A stretch of DNA of 64,000 nucleotides from Thermoplasmatota archaeon (lineage in GTDB: Archaea; Thermoplasmatota; E2; JACPAO01; JAHFTW01): assembly GCA_041601615.1 (NCBI GenBank), contig JBFIHX010000003.1, forward strand, positions 64,001-128,000, given 5' to 3'. Under the pieces are notes generated by a model. The model ran no database searches. It saw only the letters and a program-made list of their open reading frames with translations, and was not told the origin of the DNA. Below are positions 3,072 through 53,867 of the stretch, piece by piece (the first letter of the stretch is position 1; each line of letters begins with the position of its first letter). Position numbers and translations under genes: made by a program.

Positions 3072-3668
3072 CTAGCGCCGCGTCCGCACGGCCACACGCA
3101 ATCGAGCGTGCCCCACAATTTCTGCTACCACTTCCTGACCGGGCTCCATGGGTCCAACGCCCTCTGGGGTCCCGGTGAGCAGAATATCTCCGGGCACAAG
3201 CGTTGTCCAAGTGGCGGCGTGGCGCAACAGATCGGGGACATTCCACGTCATTTCGCCAGTCCGACCGTCCTGCCGCACTTCGTCGTCCACGAACAAACGA
3301 AGCTGCAGATCATCGAGGTTCACGCCGGAGCCCGCCAACGGAATCCAGGCACCAAGCGGACAGAACGTATCGTAGCCCTTCGCCTGGGTCCATGGCCGAC
3401 CTGCTGCCTTTGCCGCTGCTTGCAAGTCACGGGCGGTCACGTCAATGGCCACCGTGAAGGCGTCAGGCGCGCCGTCGGGTCCAATGCGGATGGCCAGTTC
3501 CACTTCGTGGTGCACGGCCCCAATGCCGGCTGGAAGCATCACCGCGTCGCCGTTGCCGACGATGGACGTATCTGGCTTCCAGAACCAGATGGGCGTCTCC
3601 GGCGTCTCGCTGCCCATTTCCCTCGCGTGCTTGGCGTAGTTTTTGCCCACGCAGAGGATTTTGGGCAT
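3072..3668 (-). CDS. fumarylacetoacetate hydrolase family protein
   Basis: KILCVGKNY..H, HHEVEL, DVTARDLQ, GD.LLTGTPEGVG; start moved to ATG 3668. Confidence 0.92.
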   Translation of the reverse strand: MPKILCVGKNYAKHAREMGSETPETPIWFWKPDTSIVGNGDAVMLPAGIGAVHHEVELAIRIGPDGAPDAFTVAIDVTARDLQAAAKAAGRPWTQAKGYDTFCPLGAWIPLAGSGVNLDDLQLRLFVDDEVRQDGRTGEMTWNVPDLLRHAATWTTLVPGDILLTGTPEGVGPMEPGQEVVAEIVGHARLRVAVRTRR

Positions 3669-12787: not shown

Positions 12788-13768
12788 ATGATGCAGGAGT
12801 CCACGACGGAACCCACTGCGCCCGCGACTGAGTCGACGGCCGAGCAACCCGCACCCCCCGTCACCGCCAGCGACTACATGGCCGCTGCTGCCTTGATGCT
12901 CGCATTCGTGGTCACCCAGGTGCTCGCGGTTCTGTTTGCGCAGCCCTTCGTGGATGCCAAACTGCAAGCGTTCGAGAACCCCGACGACGCAAGCAACTCG
13001 GTCTGGTACATCCTGCTCTTGCTTGCGTTCACGTTCCTCATCCTGTGGATTGCCAAGAAGGGCAAGAAGTGGCTGATCCAAGTCATCATCCTCACCGCCG
13101 TCGGCGCCACCGTCGCCTATGTGGTCGCACCCATGCTCATGTGGTACGGGGTCGGCACCGGCCTCGCGTGGGGCGCCGGTGCGGTGCTCGCGGCGGGTGC
13201 TACCTTGTGGCTTTTCCTGAAGCCAGAGTGGTACGTCATCGACTTCGTCGGCATCCTCGTAGCTGCCGGCGCCGCGGCCATCTTCGGCATAAGCCTCGGC
13301 CTCGTGCCCGTCATCGTGCTCCTCGTGGGACTCGCCATCTACGACGCCATCGCCGTGTACAAGACCAAGCACATGCTGAGCCTTGCCGACTCCGTCATCG
13401 AACTGCGCCTCCCGGTGCTGCTCGTCGTGCCCAAACACCGCGGCTATTCGTTCCTCAAAGAAGCCGCCAAATTCAAAGAAGCCGGCCCCGAAAACAAAGA
13501 AGACCGCGAGGCGTTCTTCATGGGCCTCGGCGACCTCGTCATGCCCACCATCCTCGTCGTCAGCGCCCTGTTCTATCCGCCCAACGGCAGCGACGGACGA
13601 CTCGAAGCGATCGGGGCAGCGCTCGGGACACTCGTAGGTTACGGCGTGTTGATGGGCTACGTCATGAAGGGGAATCCGCAAGCAGGACTGCCGTTGTTGA
13701 ACGGTGGGGCGATTGTTGGGTTCCTTGTGGGCGTGTTTGCGGCGACGGGAAGCATCGTTTTCTGGTAG
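12788..13768 (+). CDS. presenilin-family intramembrane aspartyl protease (PSH)
   Basis: YDAIAVY, MGLGD, PQAGLPLLN motifs; multiple TM helices. Confidence 0.93.
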   Translation: MMQESTTEPTAPATESTAEQPAPPVTASDYMAAAALMLAFVVTQVLAVLFAQPFVDAKLQAFENPDDASNSVWYILLLLAFTFLILWIAKKGKKWLIQVIILTAVGATVAYVVAPMLMWYGVGTGLAWGAGAVLAAGATLWLFLKPEWYVIDFVGILVAAGAAAIFGISLGLVPVIVLLVGLAIYDAIAVYKTKHMLSLADSVIELRLPVLLVVPKHRGYSFLKEAAKFKEAGPENKEDREAFFMGLGDLVMPTILVVSALFYPPNGSDGRLEAIGAALGTLVGYGVLMGYVMKGNPQAGLPLLNGGAIVGFLVGVFAATGSIVFW

Positions 13769-19095: not shown

Positions 19096-19530
19096 TTACG
19101 AAACGTCTATGTTGCGATCCACGGGCCCGTAGCGCGGGTGGTAGTGTCGACTTTGGCGCACCAAGCCCGCGTCGCAAAGGGATCGAAGGTGGCGCCGAAT
19201 CACCTTGCGGCTCAATTTGAGGGCGATGGCCAACTCTTGGATGCGCACCTCGCCGCGGGCGTAGACGACATCCAGGAGTTCCATCGCCTCGTCTTCGCGC
19301 AGTGCCGCCAAGTGTCGCAGCTGCTCGAACGGCACTTCGGCGGGGAACACCTGAACCTCTCGTCCTTCGCGCCGCACTTGGACTTCGCCATGTTCCTCTA
19401 GGAGCTTGATGTGGCGAAACACCGTGCCCCAGGCCAATCCGGTGGCATCGCACAAGGCCATCTTGTTGATGCCGGGCTGATCCTGGATTACATCCATCAA
19501 TTTCTCTCGGGTTTCGTCGCCTCGTTTCAA
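19096..19530 (-). CDS. tandem winged helix-turn-helix transcriptional regulator
   Basis: PGI....L...TGL.WGTV..H...L...G and second HTH ELA..L.LSRK.I..HL..L...GLV; TTG start overlaps upstream TGA. Confidence 0.8.
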   Translation of the reverse strand: MKRGDETREKLMDVIQDQPGINKMALCDATGLAWGTVFRHIKLLEEHGEVQVRREGREVQVFPAEVPFEQLRHLAALREDEAMELLDVVYARGEVRIQELAIALKLSRKVIRRHLRSLCDAGLVRQSRHYHPRYGPVDRNIDVS

Positions 19531-20909
19531 GAATATCCATCTCCTTCCATTTCCTTCAGGAATCCCCGCAGAGCACGGTTGGCTCCTACCTCGGAGGCCA
19601 TGGCGGGGTCGGCGAGAATGGCTCGGATTGCCTCAGTTCTTGCCTCTTCTAGGGCACCTTGGCCCGCGTGGACACAAGCCCACAAGTACGATCGTACGGC
19701 GGGAGCTACCCGGTCTCCGTGTTGCTCTAAGAGCTTGACGGCGCCCACGAAGTCATTGGTTTTCAGAAGCGATACAGCTCGTGCCACCACGAATTCGGGG
19801 CCGAATCGGCGGCTTGCTTCCATGCCAGCGGTGCTCGCCACGCGCTTGTAGTCGCCGACGGTCATGGCGCGTCGAAGAAGCAGCACTCGAAGGGCCCGAC
19901 CGAACAAGACGACCAGACCAAGAAACAGCAAAAGTCCGAAGAAACTGACACTCAGAATGGTGGTGTCTGTGGTGGACTCCGGCGTTTGCGTCGCAGGGCC
20001 TACTGGGGTGGGGGCGGGCGTTGCAGGGGCGGTGGCCGGCGGGGATTCGATCACGATGTGAGACGAGAAGGAGCCAGATTGGAGGGGCCCCACATCCAGA
20101 TGGAGGGGTCCCATGAGGTTGGTCAACTCTCCACTAGGAAGTTGAATCCCAGCCTGGGTGGCGTCAAGGTGGGTCACATTGGCAAAAATGTGGGTCACTT
20201 CGATCCAGAGGGTTGGGAGCGTGATGGTGCCGTTGGTGACGTGGAGGTACAACCGGCGGTCTTGGTACTCATTGGTGACGGTACCAGGTATGGTCTCGTT
20301 GTGACGGCGCAAGCCGGACCAGTAGCTGGAGCCGTCGGTGGAATTGGAGATTTGCACGTCCCATTCCCAGAAGGACACTTGGAAATCTCCGATCAACGTG
20401 ACGGTGGCGGCGGTTCCAGAAAGGTTGTGCATCTGCGAGACGTTCCAAACGTATTGGCTGCCTGCGCGCTGGAACACTTTGTCCTCGGGCAATGTATCGG
20501 TTTCATGGCCCATCACCTTGAGCCTCGGTCCGTCGATGCGAAGGCTACCGGTGCCGGCAACGTCCAGTCGATATTGGTCGCGGTTGGTGATTCCGTCTAC
20601 GCGGGCGTCGGTCCAGGTGCGGGTCTCCATGGTCTGGTTGGGGCCATGCATGTTGATTTCGGTGCCCACAAGCAGTCCGTCGGAGGAGGTGTATTGGTTG
20701 GCAACGATTTTTTGGGCGTGGATTTCCAACGCGCCATCGGTTGCGACGGAACGCTCGGTTCCGGACTTCAAAACGAGTTGGTTTGCCTCGGTTCGTGCAT
20801 CGCGAGCATCAATGGACACAATCTTGCCTCCGCTCCAAGCTGCAACGGCTGAAGGCGTTACTAGGAGCAGAATGAGGAGCACGATGAGGCTCCGCATGAT
20901 ATGTCCCAT
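19527..20909 (-). CDS. single-pass membrane protein: signal peptide, beta-rich ectodomain, P/T/A linker, TM, TPR-like tail
   Basis: GDFQVSFWEWD motif shared with 52027-53535; TM ILSVSFFGLLLFLGLVVLFG. Confidence 0.8.
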   Translation of the reverse strand: MGHIMRSLIVLLILLLVTPSAVAAWSGGKIVSIDARDARTEANQLVLKSGTERSVATDGALEIHAQKIVANQYTSSDGLLVGTEINMHGPNQTMETRTWTDARVDGITNRDQYRLDVAGTGSLRIDGPRLKVMGHETDTLPEDKVFQRAGSQYVWNVSQMHNLSGTAATVTLIGDFQVSFWEWDVQISNSTDGSSYWSGLRRHNETIPGTVTNEYQDRRLYLHVTNGTITLPTLWIEVTHIFANVTHLDATQAGIQLPSGELTNLMGPLHLDVGPLQSGSFSSHIVIESPPATAPATPAPTPVGPATQTPESTTDTTILSVSFFGLLLFLGLVVLFGRALRVLLLRRAMTVGDYKRVASTAGMEASRRFGPEFVVARAVSLLKTNDFVGAVKLLEQHGDRVAPAVRSYLWACVHAGQGALEEARTEAIRAILADPAMASEVGANRALRGFLKEMEGDGYS

Positions 20910-21245
20910 CGCGCCAGACTATTTGCTCCCTTCGGCACGATCCAAGTTCAAGCATTCTGGCCGAATTTCAGCATATGGAAAGACATATTTTCCTTGAACT
21001 ACAGAACAGTCATTCTCAATCGAGACTAATATGTCATTATCTGAGCTAACTTCATCAATGCTATGTGCGAAAATCAAAAAAAGGAAAACAAAGGGCAGAT
21101 AGATGGATATCTCGGCCATGACGAGCGTGGAGGAATTATAGATACAGATAGTTGCCCATGAAATATAGCGAACCAATCTATACATATATTAAATATATGC
21201 AGGTTGCTAATTAAGCACCACCCAAAATATTGGCAAAATCATTGC

Positions 21246-21965
21246 TTAGAATTGGATCCGTAATACAGATCCGGCCGATGATGGAGTGTGTTGCAAACGG
21301 CCACCATAATGCGCAAGGATGTGTCGACACAATGCCAACCCCACGCCGACACCCGCGCCGGCCGGAGGGTGCGCTCGCGGCCAAAACGGCTCACACAATC
21401 GCTCCAAACTGGAGGGCAAACCAGGACCATCGTCACGGAACTCCAGCCAGGTGCCGCCGTCTACGCCACCCGAAACGGTCACCATCCCCCTGGGCTTATG
21501 GTGGTGCAGCACCGCGTTCTCAAGAAGCGCCCGAAACACCGTCGCAACGTGCAGCGGCGGCATCGGCAACGCCGGCAGGTCCTCTTGAAGCTCCAAGTGA
21601 AAACCGGGATGTGGCACCCAGGCATCGATCAATGCGTCCCGTGTGTCTACCGTTGGTCCATCCGCGCCCGCTGGCTGCGCAAAACGCCGCACCCCGTCCA
21701 CAAACGCCTGCAAACCCTGAACCTCCGCCTGCAACGCCTGTACTGCCTGAATTGTTTGTGCCGCTTGCGCCGCTTGCGCCGTCTGACCGGTCTGCACCGT
21801 CTGCATATCGTCCGGTTCCTCCGCGCCCTCTGCCGTATCGCCGCCCGGCTGCACCAAAGATGCAAGTTTGGCCAACCTGCGCAACGGCGGACCCAATTCA
21901 TGGGCCACGAGATAGGAGAAAGCGTCCAGGTCCAACACCGGCGACGGCGCAGCCGATTCCAACAT
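21246..21965 (-). CDS. soluble histidine-kinase-like protein (HisKA plus HATPase, no sensor)
   Basis: AHEL..PL H-box, LLENA N-box, DDGPG, GVGLA G2; start inferred at ATG 21965. Confidence 0.75.
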   Translation of the reverse strand: MLESAAPSPVLDLDAFSYLVAHELGPPLRRLAKLASLVQPGGDTAEGAEEPDDMQTVQTGQTAQAAQAAQTIQAVQALQAEVQGLQAFVDGVRRFAQPAGADGPTVDTRDALIDAWVPHPGFHLELQEDLPALPMPPLHVATVFRALLENAVLHHHKPRGMVTVSGGVDGGTWLEFRDDGPGLPSSLERLCEPFWPRAHPPAGAGVGVGLALCRHILAHYGGRLQHTPSSAGSVLRIQF

Positions 21966-22103
21966 AGAACAAGCAAGGCACGGGTCAAATAAGCCACGTT
22001 CCCGGCGCCCCGGTGGGCATCTAGCACCCTGCCCGCCGACATCGGCCGACGCGCATCCTAAGCAAAGAGGCAAAAAGGCCGCCCGCCTGCCAACATGTAG
22101 GGG

Positions 22104-22403
22104 ATGCCATTGGACACCGAGGTCACGAACTTCATCAATCTCCCGGTCTACACGAACCGGGGCCGCTATGTGGGCGTCGTGCAGCAGGTCATTCTTGACC
22201 TCCCGACGCGCCGCGTCGGCAGTCTGCTGCTCGGCCGCACCAGCACCAAACTCATCGAAGGCGGACACGACGTTGCCGTCCCGTACCGCTGGGTCTCCGC
22301 CACCGGCGACATCATCATTCTCAGCCACTTCCCCGACAAGGTCGTCGCAGCTGCCGCCGGCAGCAACGAGGCCATGGAACTGGAAGACGACGTCCCGGTG
22401 TAA
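22104..22403 (+). CDS. PRC-barrel domain protein
   Basis: VYT..G.YVG.V...ILD, VPYRWV.A.GDIII. Confidence 0.88.
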   Translation: MPLDTEVTNFINLPVYTNRGRYVGVVQQVILDLPTRRVGSLLLGRTSTKLIEGGHDVAVPYRWVSATGDIIILSHFPDKVVAAAAGSNEAMELEDDVPV

Positions 22404-47397: not shown

Positions 47398-50025
47398 CTA
47401 GATGAGGCAGGGGTTTCCAAGGGCGAATGCGAAGTTGTAGCTCAGGACGTAGCCGTATGCTTCCCAGTCCTGGGGGCAAGGCCGGCAGCCCTTCCCGGAT
47501 GCGTCTGTGCCTGCTTGACCTCCTACGTCTGCGGAGTGATAGGTTCCGCCGTCGCACACGGGGCCGCAGCCGTTGCCGCCGGCCAGCCAGTTCAGTATGC
47601 CGGCCGTGCTCAAGGGTGTGGGTGGGGGACAGGCACAGCCGTAGACGCCGCCACCGTACACGGCTCCGACGTTGATGGTGTCGAAGATGATCCACTTGCC
47701 GTTCACACAGGGGGCGCACGGGTTGGCGACTACGGTAGCGGAGTTTCCGACCACGGGGCCGTAGTGGTCTTCGCCGGCGGGGATGTCGCAGGGGTTGCAC
47801 GGGTCAACGAAGAAGCCCGTGTAGGTTCCGAGCAGGCCGTAGACTTCGGAGAACGCCGGGCAGGTGGCGCAGTCGTTCAGGTCTGCGGCGCCGGAGAGGA
47901 TGTCTTGTGGCTCGACGCAGGCGTTGCAGGGGTCCGGCAAGCCGAGGTAGGCAAGCACTTGGCCGACGGGGCACACAACACAGTCGAGCACGTCTTGGGT
48001 GCTGAGGGTGGTGCCGCTGGTGTCGATGCAGGTGTTGCACGGATCGGCCAGGCCAAGATCATTGAGGTTCTGGCCGATGGGGCAGACGATGCAGGTTTGG
48101 ACATCGTCGATCTTCAGGGCCGCGCCGCTTGGGTCGATGCAGGGTTGGCAGGGGTCCGACAGGATGGCCGTGTTGACGGCGAGTCTGTCGGGGCATTCCA
48201 CGCAGTCGGTGGGGACGCCGTCGATTTCAGGCAGCACCTTGGACTCCGTGGTGGTCAGGTCCTTGGCAATGACGCCTGGGGGCAGGCGAGTATCGCAAGG
48301 TGTGCAGTCAATCTTGCCGGGGCCTGGGGTGGCTGCCGAGGCGGACAGGCCGCGTTCCACGAGGGGTAGTTTGTCGGTGCCGATGGGTTCGCAGGGTCTG
48401 CAGGCGTCGGGGCTCTTGGGGAAGGCGACGCCGCCGATGACGTTGTTGGCGAGGGCTTGGACCAAGTCGATGTTGGTCGGGCATAGGCACAGGTGGATTT
48501 CGGCGCCGTCCCAGGCTTTCAGGAGGGCATCGAGGGCCGTGCCGACCACGGGCAATCCGGCTGCGGTGGTCTCCGCGCTGGGGTTGAGGATGCAGTCGGG
48601 TACGATGGGGTCATCGGTGGGCGGGTCTGGCGTCCAGCTGGCCTCTTCAAGGCAGGCAGCGCCGGCCATGGCGTGGCTGACGATGATTTCGAGGGTGGTG
48701 CCGGCCACGACCGGGAGGTACAGGTGGATGGCATTGGCTTCGGACCATGCTTCCGTGCCGGTGCCGTAGCTGTTTTTCTCGTTGATGATCAGACTGCCGC
48801 CGTTGATGAGTCCGATGTGGGTGGTTTGGTCTTCGTCGACGAGGGTGCCAACGAGGCTGCCGCGAACGAGCGCGCTGGAGGCGCGAGCGGCGGCGTAGGC
48901 GCCGGAGGGGTCGGCCACGGCCACGGCGTCGGCAGTGAGTGCTTCGGCGCGCAGGAGTTCGATGCCGTTGGTGGCGTCGGTGAGGACGAACCGTTCGATG
49001 TGGGCGTGTGCTTGGGCGTGGCTACTGTCAAGCGGTTCGTCTGTTTGTGCGGTTGCGTTGAGCACGTCGAGGTCGATGTGGAAATCACCTACGCCGGCGA
49101 CTTGAATCAGGTGCGAGGAGCGGACCATGCTTTGACCGCTGTCGTCGGGTGCCTGTTGGAGGTTGAGGCGGTCGACGAGGACGCTGGCGGGGGTGTTGGG
49201 CTCCTTGAGGCCGACGTACAAGTCGTAGGCTTCAGCGATGGCGTCTTGTTTGATGAACGACAGGATGTGGTCGGTCATGAACGCCTCGAATTGCGCAGGG
49301 CTTGCGGAGTTGAGGTTGGTGTGCAGGCCGTTGGTTTGGGCGGCGATGTAGGCGAGGTAGTCGGTCGCCATGGCGTTGCCGCCGTTTTGCACGGCAAGCA
49401 CTTGGATGCCTTGGGATTGGAGCATGGCGACTTGGGTTTCAAAGTCCAGTTCGTCGCCGGTGTTCAGGAGGCCGTCGGGTCCGGGGTCGTCGCCGGTGTT
49501 GTAGCCGCCGAAGTTGGTGTCGTGGCCGGGGGCGTCGGTGAAGAGGACGACGAGTTGGAGGCCGCCGCGCCAGCCCATGCCGGGTTGGCCGACTTCGTAG
49601 AGGGCGCGCACGAGGGATTCGGGGGTGTCCCAGCCGCTGCCTTGACCGATGGCCTGAATGGAGGCGTCGACGCTGGCGGAGTTGGTGCTGATGGTGTGGT
49701 CAAGGTACCAGGGTTGGTCGGAGGGGTCGCCGTAGCCGGTGGGGTTGTTGGGGTTGCCTTGGACCGGGGGATAGTCTTCGTAGTGGCCAACACCGAAGGC
49801 GGTGCCGGGCCATTCTGCTTCGACGTTTGCCATGATGTTGGAGGCGGTCGATTTGGCGTTGGCGATGACGCCAGCCATGCTGCCCGTGGTGTCGATGACG
49901 AACACGATGTCTACCGTGTTGGGGCGGCAGAGTTCGTTGCCGTCGTCGTCGACAAAGTTGGATTCGGCGAGCGCGCTCGGGATGGGCAGTAGGAAGATAC
50001 AGAGGATGAGTATGGGGAGCTTCAT
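47398..50025 (-). CDS. secreted vWA-domain protein with long cysteine-pair repeat region
   Basis: signal peptide; DIVFVIDTTGSM, D.PE, GWR, FTDA..H; about 15 CxxC/CxC pairs in C-terminal half. Confidence 0.85.
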   Translation of the reverse strand: MKLPILILCIFLLPIPSALAESNFVDDDGNELCRPNTVDIVFVIDTTGSMAGVIANAKSTASNIMANVEAEWPGTAFGVGHYEDYPPVQGNPNNPTGYGDPSDQPWYLDHTISTNSASVDASIQAIGQGSGWDTPESLVRALYEVGQPGMGWRGGLQLVVLFTDAPGHDTNFGGYNTGDDPGPDGLLNTGDELDFETQVAMLQSQGIQVLAVQNGGNAMATDYLAYIAAQTNGLHTNLNSASPAQFEAFMTDHILSFIKQDAIAEAYDLYVGLKEPNTPASVLVDRLNLQQAPDDSGQSMVRSSHLIQVAGVGDFHIDLDVLNATAQTDEPLDSSHAQAHAHIERFVLTDATNGIELLRAEALTADAVAVADPSGAYAAARASSALVRGSLVGTLVDEDQTTHIGLINGGSLIINEKNSYGTGTEAWSEANAIHLYLPVVAGTTLEIIVSHAMAGAACLEEASWTPDPPTDDPIVPDCILNPSAETTAAGLPVVGTALDALLKAWDGAEIHLCLCPTNIDLVQALANNVIGGVAFPKSPDACRPCEPIGTDKLPLVERGLSASAATPGPGKIDCTPCDTRLPPGVIAKDLTTTESKVLPEIDGVPTDCVECPDRLAVNTAILSDPCQPCIDPSGAALKIDDVQTCIVCPIGQNLNDLGLADPCNTCIDTSGTTLSTQDVLDCVVCPVGQVLAYLGLPDPCNACVEPQDILSGAADLNDCATCPAFSEVYGLLGTYTGFFVDPCNPCDIPAGEDHYGPVVGNSATVVANPCAPCVNGKWIIFDTINVGAVYGGGVYGCACPPPTPLSTAGILNWLAGGNGCGPVCDGGTYHSADVGGQAGTDASGKGCRPCPQDWEAYGYVLSYNFAFALGNPCLI

Positions 50026-51583: not shown

Positions 51584-51712
51584 TGCGGCGGTCGCGCCGG
51601 GTCTGTCGAGTATCTGGGAAATATCCCCCGGAATCGTCCCAAAACTCGTAGGGATGTGTGAAAAACCCGAGCAAGGCTTAACCTGAAACCCATGGTAGTA
51701 TGGGTGAAATCC

Positions 51713-52024
51713 ATGATATCTCTGGTATTATCAAAGGCACGCCCCCAACATGCGGTACTAATCCTGGCGCTGGCGGGGCTCATGGTTCTTCCAGTGGCAC
51801 AGGCACATCCACCGGCCGAGAATCAAAGCGAAGAGTCGCCCAACTGCGTGTATATGCTCATAAATCACCATAATCCGTACTACTGCGTACCCGGCCTTCC
51901 GCCCCGATGCGGCATTGTGGTCATTTTCTTCACGCTTAACCCGCCCAACGCATGGCCCTCCTACCAACAAGGTTGCGTGGATGAGTGGGATCAGTATGTA
52001 GCCAACATTGTACGGACCGAGTGA
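51713..52024 (+). CDS. small secreted four-cysteine protein
   Basis: GGGTGA RBS before ATG 51713; signal ending AQA; 2 nt upstream of the receptor-like gene. Confidence 0.7.
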   Translation: MISLVLSKARPQHAVLILALAGLMVLPVAQAHPPAENQSEESPNCVYMLINHHNPYYCVPGLPPRCGIVVIFFTLNPPNAWPSYQQGCVDEWDQYVANIVRTE

Positions 52025-52026
52025 GC

Positions 52027-53535
52027 ATGAAAATCCAGGAACGAGGGCTCATTCTAACGCTCGCCATGGTGGGACTTCTCGTGCTCACTGCGGGCCCAGC
52101 AAATGCGCAATCGGAGCGACTTGGCGCTTCCAGTCTTCAATGGAGTGCCGGTTCGGATTTGCAAGGGTCGGTTCCAGTCATGGAGATGATGTATGGTCCG
52201 TTTGCTCGCTTTTCTCTTTCAGCAGAATCATTGCGAATAGAAACGGATGCGAATTTCGTCGATGTGCAACCCGTTGTGCAGGAGCATCCAGAAACTACAA
52301 TCCAAGAGGCAGGCAAATCCACTGTGGAAGGGCAGGAAGCCCGGGTTGATGCCCGCATGTTCATCCATGCCTCCAGGGGGGCCAAATTGGTGGCGCCGGA
52401 CCTTGCCGGATGCGGTGCTGCGCAACCTCCTGTGCGCTCTGCCCACGTCTACCAACCCTTCCTCTCCGGCCGCCCCACCCTCCGCGTCCCCCTCGACGAC
52501 GCAGTGCGCTGGGAACCGTGCGGCGATGGTACCGTGACCTTGCACGGCGACTTCATAATCGCACTCTGGGAGTGGGACGCCGAACTGCGAAGCAGCGACG
52601 GCACGACCATGCTCCAAAGTGGGCGCGGAGACCCGACCGCGGGTGACCTGGGTTCCCGCGAGCAATTCCTGTTTGCCACGAATGCCACCTTGCGCCTGCC
52701 ACCCGGGAAGCAAGTGGTGTACTTGCGCGACCTCAGTGTGAGTACCGGCTCGGCGCACCTAGACGATGCCGAAGGTGAGGTGGCGGGCCGCGCCGTGTCT
52801 GGTGCCTTGGAATTGGAGGGCGATTTGCGCGTGCAAATCCAAGGTCAGGGAGCAAACGCGCCGTTGCAGGCGACCATCGATGGCATCACCGCCGCAAGCA
52901 TCGACGGACAGACCCTGGTGGTGCCAGGTGCGCCGGCTGGGGGCGTGTCGAGGTGGCCGTGGCTCCTGCTCGTGTTGGCGGCTCCCGTGGTTGGAATCGC
53001 CTATGCAAGACCCCACCTTCACTACTTCTACAACGAGCGAAACGGTGGTGAATTGGGCAGCCTCGTGCCAAAATCTCGAGCGCAACGGCGCGGCGTCGGA
53101 GTGTGGATCATGGCTCGCAAGGCCGAACGACGCGGATGGTTCTGGCTCAGTTTCCGGCGCGCCACGCGAGCCAACAACTTGTTTCGACCGTTTCCTGAAG
53201 CGCAGTTCACACGCGCCGTCGCCGCCGGACACCTAGGGCGGCACGCGGACGCCATGACGGACTTCCTGGACCTGTACAACCGCCACGACGAGCCCATGGG
53301 CCGGGCTGCGGCCGCGTGCGGAATCGCCCAGGAATGCTGCCGCATGGAACGCTGGGCCAATGGCAAGGAATGGCTGCTCATAGCGACCACAGAATCGTTC
53401 GAGTATGCACACCAAGCGAGCATAGAGCCGGAGTTTGACCACTTCCAAGGCGAGCCTTGGTTCGATGCAATGCGGCGCGGACGGAACGTGGTGCCGGCGT
53501 TCGAATTCGACCGTGGCGACCCATCGGTCCACTAG
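52027..53535 (+). CDS. single-pass membrane protein: signal peptide, ectodomain, TM, TPR-like tail
   Basis: GDFIIALWEWD motif shared with 19527-20909; TM WPWLLLVLAAPVVGIAY. Confidence 0.8.
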   Translation: MKIQERGLILTLAMVGLLVLTAGPANAQSERLGASSLQWSAGSDLQGSVPVMEMMYGPFARFSLSAESLRIETDANFVDVQPVVQEHPETTIQEAGKSTVEGQEARVDARMFIHASRGAKLVAPDLAGCGAAQPPVRSAHVYQPFLSGRPTLRVPLDDAVRWEPCGDGTVTLHGDFIIALWEWDAELRSSDGTTMLQSGRGDPTAGDLGSREQFLFATNATLRLPPGKQVVYLRDLSVSTGSAHLDDAEGEVAGRAVSGALELEGDLRVQIQGQGANAPLQATIDGITAASIDGQTLVVPGAPAGGVSRWPWLLLVLAAPVVGIAYARPHLHYFYNERNGGELGSLVPKSRAQRRGVGVWIMARKAERRGWFWLSFRRATRANNLFRPFPEAQFTRAVAAGHLGRHADAMTDFLDLYNRHDEPMGRAAAACGIAQECCRMERWANGKEWLLIATTESFEYAHQASIEPEFDHFQGEPWFDAMRRGRNVVPAFEFDRGDPSVH

Positions 53536-53537
53536 CT

Positions 53538-53867
53538 TCAATGCAAGCGATCTTGCCCGAATTCGGACGATCCCAACGGGCCCAACATTCGAGCCTTTTC
53601 CCATTCTTTCCCCTTTTTCCCTTCGTGTGGTGCGGGCTCAGGCGCCCATTCTGGAAGGGGGCCAAGGCCTCGCCGTCGCTCGTCCACCACGCGCCGCAGC
53701 TCGGCATCCCGGTAGCAATCGGCAAGCAACCGGCGACACGCCTCTGTGGCAAACCCGGACATGCTCCGGTGCCCCAGCCAACGCTGTTCACGGATCAGTT
53801 CGTCAATCGCGTCGGCCAGTTCACGCGGTAGCCCTGCCTGTCGGTGGGAAGATCCGTTCTGCAACAA
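53538..53867 (-). CDS. ribbon-helix-helix (CopG-like) protein
   Basis: LP.EL...ID.LI......G..S.S.F..EA.R..L pattern. Confidence 0.6.
   Translation of the reverse strand: MLQNGSSHRQAGLPRELADAIDELIREQRWLGHRSMSGFATEACRRLLADCYRDAELRRVVDERRRGLGPLPEWAPEPAPHEGKKGKEWEKARMLGPLGSSEFGQDRLH

Follow-up and report, generated by a model that had tools for sequence, protein, structure and literature searches.

We analyzed a 64,000-nucleotide (nt) stretch of a Thermoplasmatota genome (assembly GCA_041601615.1, contig JBFIHX010000003.1, positions 64,001-128,000), hereafter the window, and found that positions 19096-21119 of its reverse strand carry a three-gene cassette, which comprises in order a Cys-loop gene (gene 1), a receptor gene (gene 2) and a tandem winged helix-turn-helix (wHTH) gene (gene 3). 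The cassette is lineage-specific, much duplicated and hitherto undescribed in uncultivated Thermoplasmatota archaea. We propose, with a probability of roughly 0.5, that it performs transmembrane signaling in which a tetratricopeptide repeat (TPR) tail of the membrane protein holds or controls the regulator, the Cys-loop protein being a ligand or co-receptor. This proposal draws on the gene structure, topology signals, TPR fold, wHTH domains, recurrent gene order, overlap of start and stop codons, natural fusions and co-diversification, which are presented below.

Transmembrane signal transduction in archaea is poorly charted, and uncultivated Thermoplasmatota are nearly without studied regulators. 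The cassette connects a pair of extracellular proteins with a DNA-binding protein; 17 copies occur in a 2.8-Mb genome, and public data contain 811 sequence clusters. Should the tail indeed hold the regulator, the cassette would be an archaeal counterpart of bacterial anti-sigma/extracytoplasmic function (ECF) sigma factor signaling, constructed from unrelated parts (TPR and tandem ArsR-like wHTH), and a role would be gained for three unnamed families, namely the GDF-WEWD ectodomain, the Cys-loop protein and the tandem-wHTH partner.

Domain organization and topology of the receptor-like protein

Gene 2 (19527..20909, reverse strand) encodes a receptor-like type-I membrane protein of 460 amino acids (aa), as judged from its open reading frame (ORF), an AlphaFold2 (AF2) model and its relatives. 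The original prediction had read a signal peptide, an ectodomain, a Pro/Thr/Ala linker, one transmembrane (TM) segment and a TPR-like tail in this gene, all of which we confirmed from the sequence and the model. The signal peptide (aa 1-24, 20838..20909) is a hydrophobic segment that is helical at residues 3-17 in the model and is probably cleaved at PSAVAA/W. It is followed by an all-beta ectodomain with seven N-x-S/T sequons (aa 25-288, 20046..20837), which contains the family signature GDFQVSFWEWD (aa 174-184, 20358..20390); in alignments of 92-124 members, G174 was invariant and W181 nearly so, as was F176 in alignment A7. The linker (aa 289-317, 19959..20045) has the sequence PPATAPATPAPTPVGPATQTPESTTDTT, with predicted local distance difference test (pLDDT) values below 50 at residues 290-314. 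Hydrophobicity, model and sequence all place a single TM helix at aa ~318-340 (19890..19958), and the residues just after it, RALRVLLLRRAM, form an Arg-rich cytoplasmic flank of the positive-inside type. The remainder of the protein is a three-repeat TPR-fold tail (aa 341-460, 19530..19889) ending in EGDGYS, as indicated by the model and by structure comparison.

All seven sequons of the receptor fall within residues 91-244 and none in the tail. A similar distribution was observed family-wide, the sequon density being 0.67 per 100 aa over the N-terminal two thirds and 0.09 in the C-terminal part. The signal peptide, together with the position of the sequons and the positive-inside rule, leads to a predicted type-I topology of the receptor, with the ectodomain outside and the tail inside.

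The AF2 model, computed from a 124-sequence alignment, had a mean pLDDT of 87.3; in it, the all-beta ectodomain is elongated, the linker disordered and the TM helix long, and six paired helices follow. The ectodomain consists of long strands with block pLDDT values mostly of 83-98, and the tail of six ~14-residue helices at residues 370-455 (pLDDT 94-98). When the tail was compared with the TPR domains of YbgF, Sti1, Hop, CHIP and others using VIA structure comparison, Z values of 10-11.6 and root mean square deviations (rmsd) of 2.0-3.5 Å over 89-126 residues were obtained. In the model, the tail forms the right-handed superhelix of paired antiparallel helices (three repeats plus a capping helix) by which TPR domains are recognized. 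Pfam TPR models matched up to 16 of 92 family members, with a best E value of 4.5e-07.

The ectodomain resembled no family in the collections that we searched. Scans of Pfam and NCBIfam left the receptor unnamed, and retrieved no ectodomain family among the 92 members; nor was any DNA-binding domain found in the window receptor with Pfam. Foldseek searches of full-length models against the PDB yielded TM-scores of at most 0.11 for the first model and at most 0.10 for the better one, both with rmsd >16 Å, and the matches to the receptor were solely long-strand proteins, namely aerolysin-type toxins, secretins and lectins. In a wide VIA search with the full-length model, the list was filled by matches to the TPR tail. 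A second look at the ectodomain gave best Z values of 5.2-4.8 (p84 and the NAD kinase C-domain) over ~90-100 of ~255 residues, and a feature search of the ESM Atlas with residues 25-290 returned no usable match.

TPR domains of the Hop/Sti1/CHIP kind bind C-terminal peptides. The extreme C-termini of the family representatives were of the (E)GY[SATVI] type in 40 out of 151, followed by DPS[FVI]A-like and P-x-WL[LQ]P types.

The receptor gene is coupled to a tandem wHTH regulator

Gene 3 (19096..19530, reverse strand) encodes a tandem ArsR-like wHTH regulator of 144 aa, which is supported by Pfam, by profile comparison with structures and by an orthologue at a related locus (L008). Pfam detected HTH_24 at residues 5-48 (53.2 bits; cut-off 21.9), and both MarR_2 (41.3 bits; cut-off 27) and HTH_5 (40.1 bits; cut-off 22) at residues 83-129. 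The gene 3 profile (A6) matched solved structures of the ArsR family, HlyU, YgaV and SmtB with E values of 1e-9 to 1e-5, and both halves matched. The NCBIfam model HTH_metalloreg scored 53.4 bits, under its cut-off of 55, and we therefore classified gene 3 as ArsR-like and not as a metalloregulator.

The TGA stop codon of the receptor gene (19527-19529) overlaps the TTG start codon of gene 3 (19528-19530) as TTGA, in line with what had been proposed from the sequence of the window. The orthologous locus L008 reads GTGA at the equivalent spot, which supports the TTG start, and a 4-nt overlap of this kind (ATGA, GTGA or TTGA) recurs in 10 distinct loci.

To count such arrangements, we used the best matches from ~40 related genomes, and these loci are not independent of each other. 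The source assembly is 2.79 Mb long and 93% complete, with ~62% GC. Non-duplicate loci contained 46 family ORFs; 45 of these could be used, with 17 coming from the window's own genome and 28 from other genomes. Duplicates were left out (L011, the same as L008; L012, as L009; L035, as L002; L040, as L007; L041, as L006), as were L052 and L025, the latter of which is cut short by a contig end. A tandem wHTH gene was located directly downstream on the same strand in 22/45 loci (7 of the 17 copies in the window's own genome and 15 in others), and was fused to the receptor in 1/45.

A hidden Markov model (HMM) built from five partner proteins matched residues ~370-515, past the TM segment, in four out of 151 representatives (P0020, P0057, P0075 and P0084). 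In these proteins, the wHTH pair occupies the C-terminal ~130 residues at nearly the full length of the HMM and replaces the TPR tail, and a spacer of only ~45 residues separates its first wHTH from the TM segment. A fused protein is likewise encoded at locus L028. Among the 92 members scanned with Pfam, MarR_2 was found in five and HTH_24 in three; a Penicillinase_R match in one fused relative (E 0.0006, below the cut-off) reflects wHTH similarity alone. The natural occurrence of both split and fused forms argues for a physical link between receptor and regulator.

We compared the pairwise identities of receptors with those of their partners and obtained a Spearman correlation of 0.42 for 18 pairs, or of 0.47 once the two close orthologues had been left out; these values were reached in 0 of 5000 permutations. 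The pair therefore diversifies as a unit. The receptor C-terminus was also associated with the partner: among receptors ending in [YW][STAGNV], the partner was downstream in 17, fused in 0 and absent in five, whereas among those with another C-terminus, the corresponding numbers were five, one and 17. A complex prediction for the tail (aa 340-460, alignment A7) and the wHTH protein (A6) gave a score of 0.13, the mark being 0.32, and weighs neither way.

A further protein with the same wHTH pair was found in the window's own genome (C8:28257-29402, forward strand). It comprises 381 aa and starts like a signal peptide; its N-terminal part (~200 residues) is different, and the tandem wHTH is at residues 218-351 (E 5.7e-28 against the partner HMM). 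The wHTH pair is therefore tethered to other N-terminal regions too. Just downstream lies the top frame of the genome for the Cys-loop HMM described below (C8:29344-29727), which failed the coding filter.

These forms also bear on a reading in which the regulator acts at the membrane, with a logic like that of ToxR/ToxS: recruited to the TPR tail or fused to the receptor, it would bind DNA while resident at the membrane, and the Cys-loop protein would be a co-subunit that stabilizes the ectodomain and not a signal. The short spacer of ~45 residues in the fused forms and the additional signal peptide-wHTH fusion at C8:28257-29402 are compatible with this idea, and the Cys-loop proteins of 150-180 aa with weak fn3 matches, described below, would suit a subunit better than a pheromone. 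Transmembrane transcription regulators are also reported to be common in archaea (PMC10269533). However, the split form is commoner than the fused form (22 versus 1 in the loci seen), and a soluble partner makes little sense if action is confined to the membrane; we consider this reading rather unlikely.

A secreted Cys-loop protein is encoded upstream of the receptor

The original prediction had placed an AT-rich intergenic region upstream of the receptor gene. The AT-richness is evident, with a GC content of 0.36-0.42 at positions 20900-21275 versus ~0.62 around them, but the region is not simply intergenic, as it contains a conserved ORF of 66 codons. This ORF, gene 1 (20919..21119, reverse strand), is supported by the reading frame itself, by the L008 orthologue and by its position, and encodes a small secreted protein of 66 aa with a signal-peptide-like N-terminus, two Cys residues and the motif C-x17-FPY-x6-EC-L. 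The ORF stops 9 nt short of the receptor ATG. An AT-rich spacer (21120..21245, reverse strand; GC 0.36) extends from the stop codon of the upstream kinase gene to gene 1. TATA-like AT-rich runs are visible in it, and it presumably holds the promoter of the cassette.

At L008, positions 3138-3338 contain an ORF of equal length (66 codons) with an equal 9-nt gap to the receptor gene. The two proteins aligned in pairwise BLASTP with an E value of 5e-06 and 25% identity; both Cys residues and the PY were aligned, and the PY...C-L motif was shared. In shuffled sequences (20000 for each genome), an ATG-initiated ORF of at least 60 codons ending at most 15 nt from the receptor ATG appeared in 0.4-0.5%. 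The intergenic DNA of the window and that of L008 aligned poorly except for the last ~20 nt, and no shared operator was found, although none was sought systematically.

Co-directional genes for secreted proteins lie directly upstream of the receptor gene across the family, and their products end in a loop C-x(8-26)-C[LIVYFK] that often includes PP[FY]; the conserved Cys loop is of the disulfide type (C ... PP[FY] ... [ED]C[LI]). We initially applied a loose Cys-pattern test to the upstream sequences, which was discarded since 26% of control genes passed, and a strict version was adopted for this reason. To pass the strict test, an ORF of 40-200 aa had to have a start codon, a hydrophobic N-terminus and the loop near its C-terminus, and had to terminate close to the start of the receptor gene. 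Seven loci in which the profile match begins past position 60 were left out, so that 39 were testable. The strict test was positive at 26 of these 39 loci, compared with 13 of 1054 control genes of the window's own genome (1.2%). Furthermore, when 38653 frames of this genome were searched with a loop HMM built from other genomes only, three of the four best frames were directly upstream of family genes. The original prediction had proposed to look for small secreted ORFs and for HTH fusion or adjacency among homologues; such ORFs do exist upstream, and wHTH genes are adjacent in 22/45 loci and fused in some relatives.

Upstream Cys-loop proteins of many relatives are longer, at 150-180 aa. Weak matches to fn3 were obtained in seven of 10 upstream proteins scanned (E 2.3e-5 to 0.043), with that of L023 alone reaching the cut-off (25.0 versus 25). 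A putative FN3-like domain precedes the loop in many relatives, and none was detected in the 66-aa protein of the window; Pfam yielded no matches for the upstream secreted ORFs of the window's own genome.

These frequencies bear on whether the cassette could be a product of chance or mis-called genes, in which case the overlap, the small ORF and the similarity to a paralogue would be accidents of a GC-rich genome. GC-rich DNA indeed yields many spurious long ORFs, and the loose test, as noted, was positive in 26% of controls. Against this stand the rate of 1.2% in the strict control and of 0.4-0.5% in the shuffles, as well as the 811 homologues, the high-confidence fold and a gene order repeated in other genomes, and we regard the probability of such an explanation as negligible.

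Distribution of the family and divergence within the cassette

A word-based homologue search retrieved two relatives alone, and an exhaustive profile search was needed for the rest. With a nine-sequence profile (A1), the exhaustive search identified 811 cluster representatives when E values up to 1e-3 were accepted; 490 remained at E ≤ 1e-10 and 154 at E ≤ 1e-30. With few exceptions, the representatives are 430-570 aa long and match end to end. Members were present in 20/24 genomes of the same taxonomic family, in 4/6 of the other two families of the order and in 0/10 of other families of the class, and an even sample of the phylum contained the family in 7/201 genomes, including that of the window, which itself has 17 copies. 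The family is thus mostly confined to one order of Thermoplasmatota. One member (L010; 529 aa, ending in EGYT) has an FN3-like Cys-loop gene upstream and no detected wHTH gene downstream; its contig is labeled 'MAG: bacterium', which may be a matter of binning or naming.

Between the window and L008, the orthologous regulators shared 85% identity, the receptors 56-57% and the Cys-loop proteins 25%. Judged from these identities, the outer parts of the cassette are those that diverge fastest, and the steep gradient of divergence from outside to inside hints at recognition functions.

Fast-changing outer parts and 17 copies per genome would also fit a purely structural role, in which genes 1 and 2 build an adhesion or envelope structure and the wHTH protein is a co-transcribed repressor of its own operon that is not physically linked to the receptor. 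A large, beta-rich and sequon-bearing ectodomain, putative FN3-like domains on the extracellular partners of gene 2 and the lack of a wHTH gene in 22/45 loci would all agree with such a structure. However, the fusions place the wHTH pair and the ectodomain on one polypeptide, the cytoplasmic TPR domain and its conserved C-terminus would be left without a role, and partner and receptor co-diversify. The fusions make this reading less likely, and we consider it distinctly unlikely.

Proposed mechanism and evidence against it

In the proposed signaling mechanism, the Cys-loop protein would act as a ligand or co-receptor for the ectodomain, and the cytoplasmic TPR domain would retain the regulator at the membrane in the way that an anti-sigma factor retains its sigma factor. 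An outside event might alter this hold, either via conformational change or via proteolysis of the receptor, and transcription would be altered as a result. In the fused relatives, a covalent tether would take the place of the TPR tail. In these steps, we infer physical binding, a direction of control (either sequestration or activation), the kind of signal and the regulated genes.

Several observations weigh against this mechanism. The wHTH partner is absent in 22/45 loci, and the family can therefore function without one. The strict upstream test was negative at 13/39 loci; gene 1 itself had an E value of 3.3 against the loop HMM, so that its support comes from the L008 orthologue and its position, and at L009, the closest orthologue but one, there is no space for gene 1. 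As for the receptor, VIA Z values below ~13, such as those of the tail against TPR domains, can come from any helical repeat, and the window receptor had no Pfam TPR match at E ≤ 0.1. The searches for the ectodomain fold used the full-length receptor model, and a known fold may have escaped them. Moreover, the conserved C-terminal (E)GY[SAT] may in part be a G-rich ribosome-binding stretch for the overlapping start codon and not a peptide signal, and physical binding between tail and regulator enters the mechanism as a presumed step.

We can also conceive of the cassettes as a surface recognition repertoire of the archaeon. Approximately 17 private channels per genome (for self or kin, neighbors or viruses), each with a fast-evolving Cys-loop ligand and a receptor and tandem-wHTH regulator of its own, might be read out by ligand-triggered shedding and intramembrane cleavage, through a presenilin homologue or another membrane protease, and a TPR-bound or tethered regulator would thereby be freed in a Notch-like manner. 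We regard this elaboration as very unlikely.

A paralogue in the window and copies without a wHTH partner

A paralogue of gene 2 is located at 51985/52027..53535 on the forward strand of the window. Its ectodomain had been noted to align with that of gene 2, and BLASTP bore this out: over the block from GDF-x4-WEWD to TNGT, the two aligned with an E value of 1e-07 and 29% identity over 91 aa (E 6.6e-5 in the own-genome search). The paralogue has a longer tail ending in DPSVH, with a Pfam match to TPR_16 at E 0.056, and no wHTH partner. Directly upstream, a gene recognized by its ORF and the upstream test (51692..52024, forward strand) encodes a secreted 4-Cys protein of 110 aa, which is the counterpart of gene 1.

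Other partner-less copies resemble the paralogue in their longer tails, and conserved C-termini of other kinds occur among them, for example DPS[FV]A and P-x-WL[LQ]P. Several of these copies are convergent with a small gene, with stop codons 2-10 nt apart. For the paralogue in the window, this gene is at 53538-53867 (reverse strand), its stop codon being 3 nt from that of the paralogue; in the same genome, further cases are C23:2044-2307, C13:62127-62471 and C13:34080-34355, as well as C19:24204-24437 at a distance of 106 nt. Cases in other genomes are L013:1079-1372, L038:962-1240 and L039:1011-1283. The encoded proteins align in a ribbon-helix-helix (RHH)-like pattern, and their profile matched CopG-family structures in the PDB at E 0.083 and 0.16, followed by ParD (range 0.083-0.38, all below significance); Pfam gave no matches for these small ORFs. 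The convergent RHH-like gene may represent a second kind of DNA-binding partner, which we note as a lead.

Neighboring genes

Upstream of the cassette, a sensor-less histidine kinase had been proposed, and this was corroborated: the ORF matched HATPase_c as its sole domain and contained no TM segment. The ORF as listed (21246-22328, reverse strand; 360 aa) overlaps a PRC-barrel gene on the opposite strand (22104-22403, forward strand; PF05239, E 6.4e-12). The true start is most likely at 21965, since the resulting protein of 239 aa (21246..21965), with the H-box-like FSYLVAHELGPPL and HATPase_c (Pfam and NCBIfam), matches the 225-aa orthologue at L008.

The membrane protein could in principle be the missing sensor of this kinase, with the wHTH protein as an unorthodox output. 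Such a kinase is indeed found directly upstream in the three orthologous loci (window, L008 and L009), and a receiver-like gene, called by eye, is beside the L009 cassette. However, kinase homologues were found within 3 kb of only 2/17 family copies in the window's own genome, gene 3 has no receiver domain, and the AT-rich, promoter-like spacer parts the kinase from the cassette. The three loci are close relatives in which PRC-barrel and ThiN genes are conserved too, as expected from general synteny. A kinase and a cognate receiver regulator tied to the cassette, by which a two-component system is recognized, were not found together. We therefore rejected a general kinase link, hold the sensor reading to be highly improbable, and consider that the kinase is probably outside the cassette, as a neighbor conserved in orthologous loci only. 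The receiver-like gene at L009 (2346-2852, reverse strand; LLVVDD...DLDMPGTDG) is convergent with the wHTH gene, and none adjoins the cassette of the window.

A presenilin/signal peptide peptidase homologue is encoded at 12902-13744 on the forward strand (PF06550, E 1e-87), and a link to the receptor had been raised as speculation. Homologues were found in 37/41 related genomes whether or not the family was present, including all 10 genomes of the same class without the family. As presenilin is near-universal, its co-occurrence with the family is uninformative, and the specific link was rejected. A defense-system reading was also dropped, as PADLOC matched only the wHTH domain (Csa3/CasR type) and nothing in the membrane protein or the small ORFs. 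Elsewhere in the window, positions 47398-50025 (reverse strand) encode a secreted protein of 875 aa with a long, Cys-rich, repetitive C-terminal half and a DxTGS motif near the N-terminus, which by eye we take to be von Willebrand A-like.

Every element that the original prediction listed for 19096-21965 was thus found in the sequence. Its functional link from receptor to wHTH protein is upheld by the pairing, the fusions, the co-diversification, the TPR fold and the upstream secreted ORFs, whereas a general role for the kinase, the tie to presenilin and the label 'intergenic' are not.

Comparison with known systems

The original prediction recognized no described archaeal system with this layout, and our literature searches agree: no description of the family or the layout was found in the full-text literature searched, although the supplements of one survey, outside that search, may list fused members (PMC10269533).

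The cassette can be compared with several established systems. Like Notch, which is processed by presenilin, gene 2 encodes a type-I protein whose ectodomain is large and whose cytoplasmic part is connected with a transcription factor, and the genome encodes a presenilin homologue. Unlike in Notch, cleavage of the receptor is a supposition here, and the presenilin homologue is present regardless of the family. BlaR1/BlaI and MecR1/MecI resemble the cassette in that a membrane sensor is encoded beside a small wHTH repressor under its control; however, BlaR1 senses through a penicillin-binding domain and has a zinc protease as its cytoplasmic domain, and neither domain was found in the cassette with Pfam. 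The RRNPP regulators (Rgg, PlcR and PrgX) similarly link TPR repeats with an HTH output and have a gene for a small secreted peptide beside the receptor gene, but are cytoplasmic single chains that bind re-imported peptides. In the cassette, by contrast, the TPR is on the tail of a membrane protein and the HTH belongs to another polypeptide, and the secreted protein would encounter the ectodomain and not the TPR.

ToxR/ToxS and TcpP/TcpH of Vibrio share with the cassette a membrane-tethered wHTH and a small co-transcribed extracytoplasmic partner. Their wHTH is N-terminal and the partner gene is downstream, whereas the cassette has the order small protein, receptor, regulator, with the regulator usually a separate chain and a TPR interposed. 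The fused forms, with the N-terminus outside, a large ectodomain led by a signal peptide and a C-terminal DNA-binding domain, are the reverse of ToxR/CadC. Archaea have transmembrane transcription regulators (TTRs) of their own, of which ArnR and ArnR1 are reportedly examples. A TTR is defined as a DNA-binding domain and at least one TM region in one protein, and TTRs are described as common in archaea, with a mean of four per genome (Demey et al. 2023, PMC10269533). By this definition, the fused relatives P0020, P0057, P0075, P0084 and L028 are TTRs, whereas the window receptor, without a DNA-binding domain of its own, is outside it.

The proposed mechanism can also be compared with anti-sigma/ECF pairs. 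In both cases, a single-pass membrane protein is co-transcribed with a soluble transcription protein, an extracytoplasmic sensing domain is present, a cytoplasmic domain is proposed to hold the partner, and many paralogous copies occur per genome. Pairs such as RseA/sigma-E and RsgI/SigI consist of a single-pass anti-sigma factor and an ECF sigma factor, and archaea are not known to have sigma factors. The partner in the cassette is a tandem ArsR-type wHTH and not a member of the sigma-70 family, and the proposed holding domain is a TPR and not an anti-sigma domain. Further differences are the type-I topology with a cleaved signal peptide, the leading secreted Cys-loop gene and the fused forms. 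Gene 3 gave no matches to sigma-70 regions, and the cassette is not a member of this class but resembles an anti-sigma pair in logic only.

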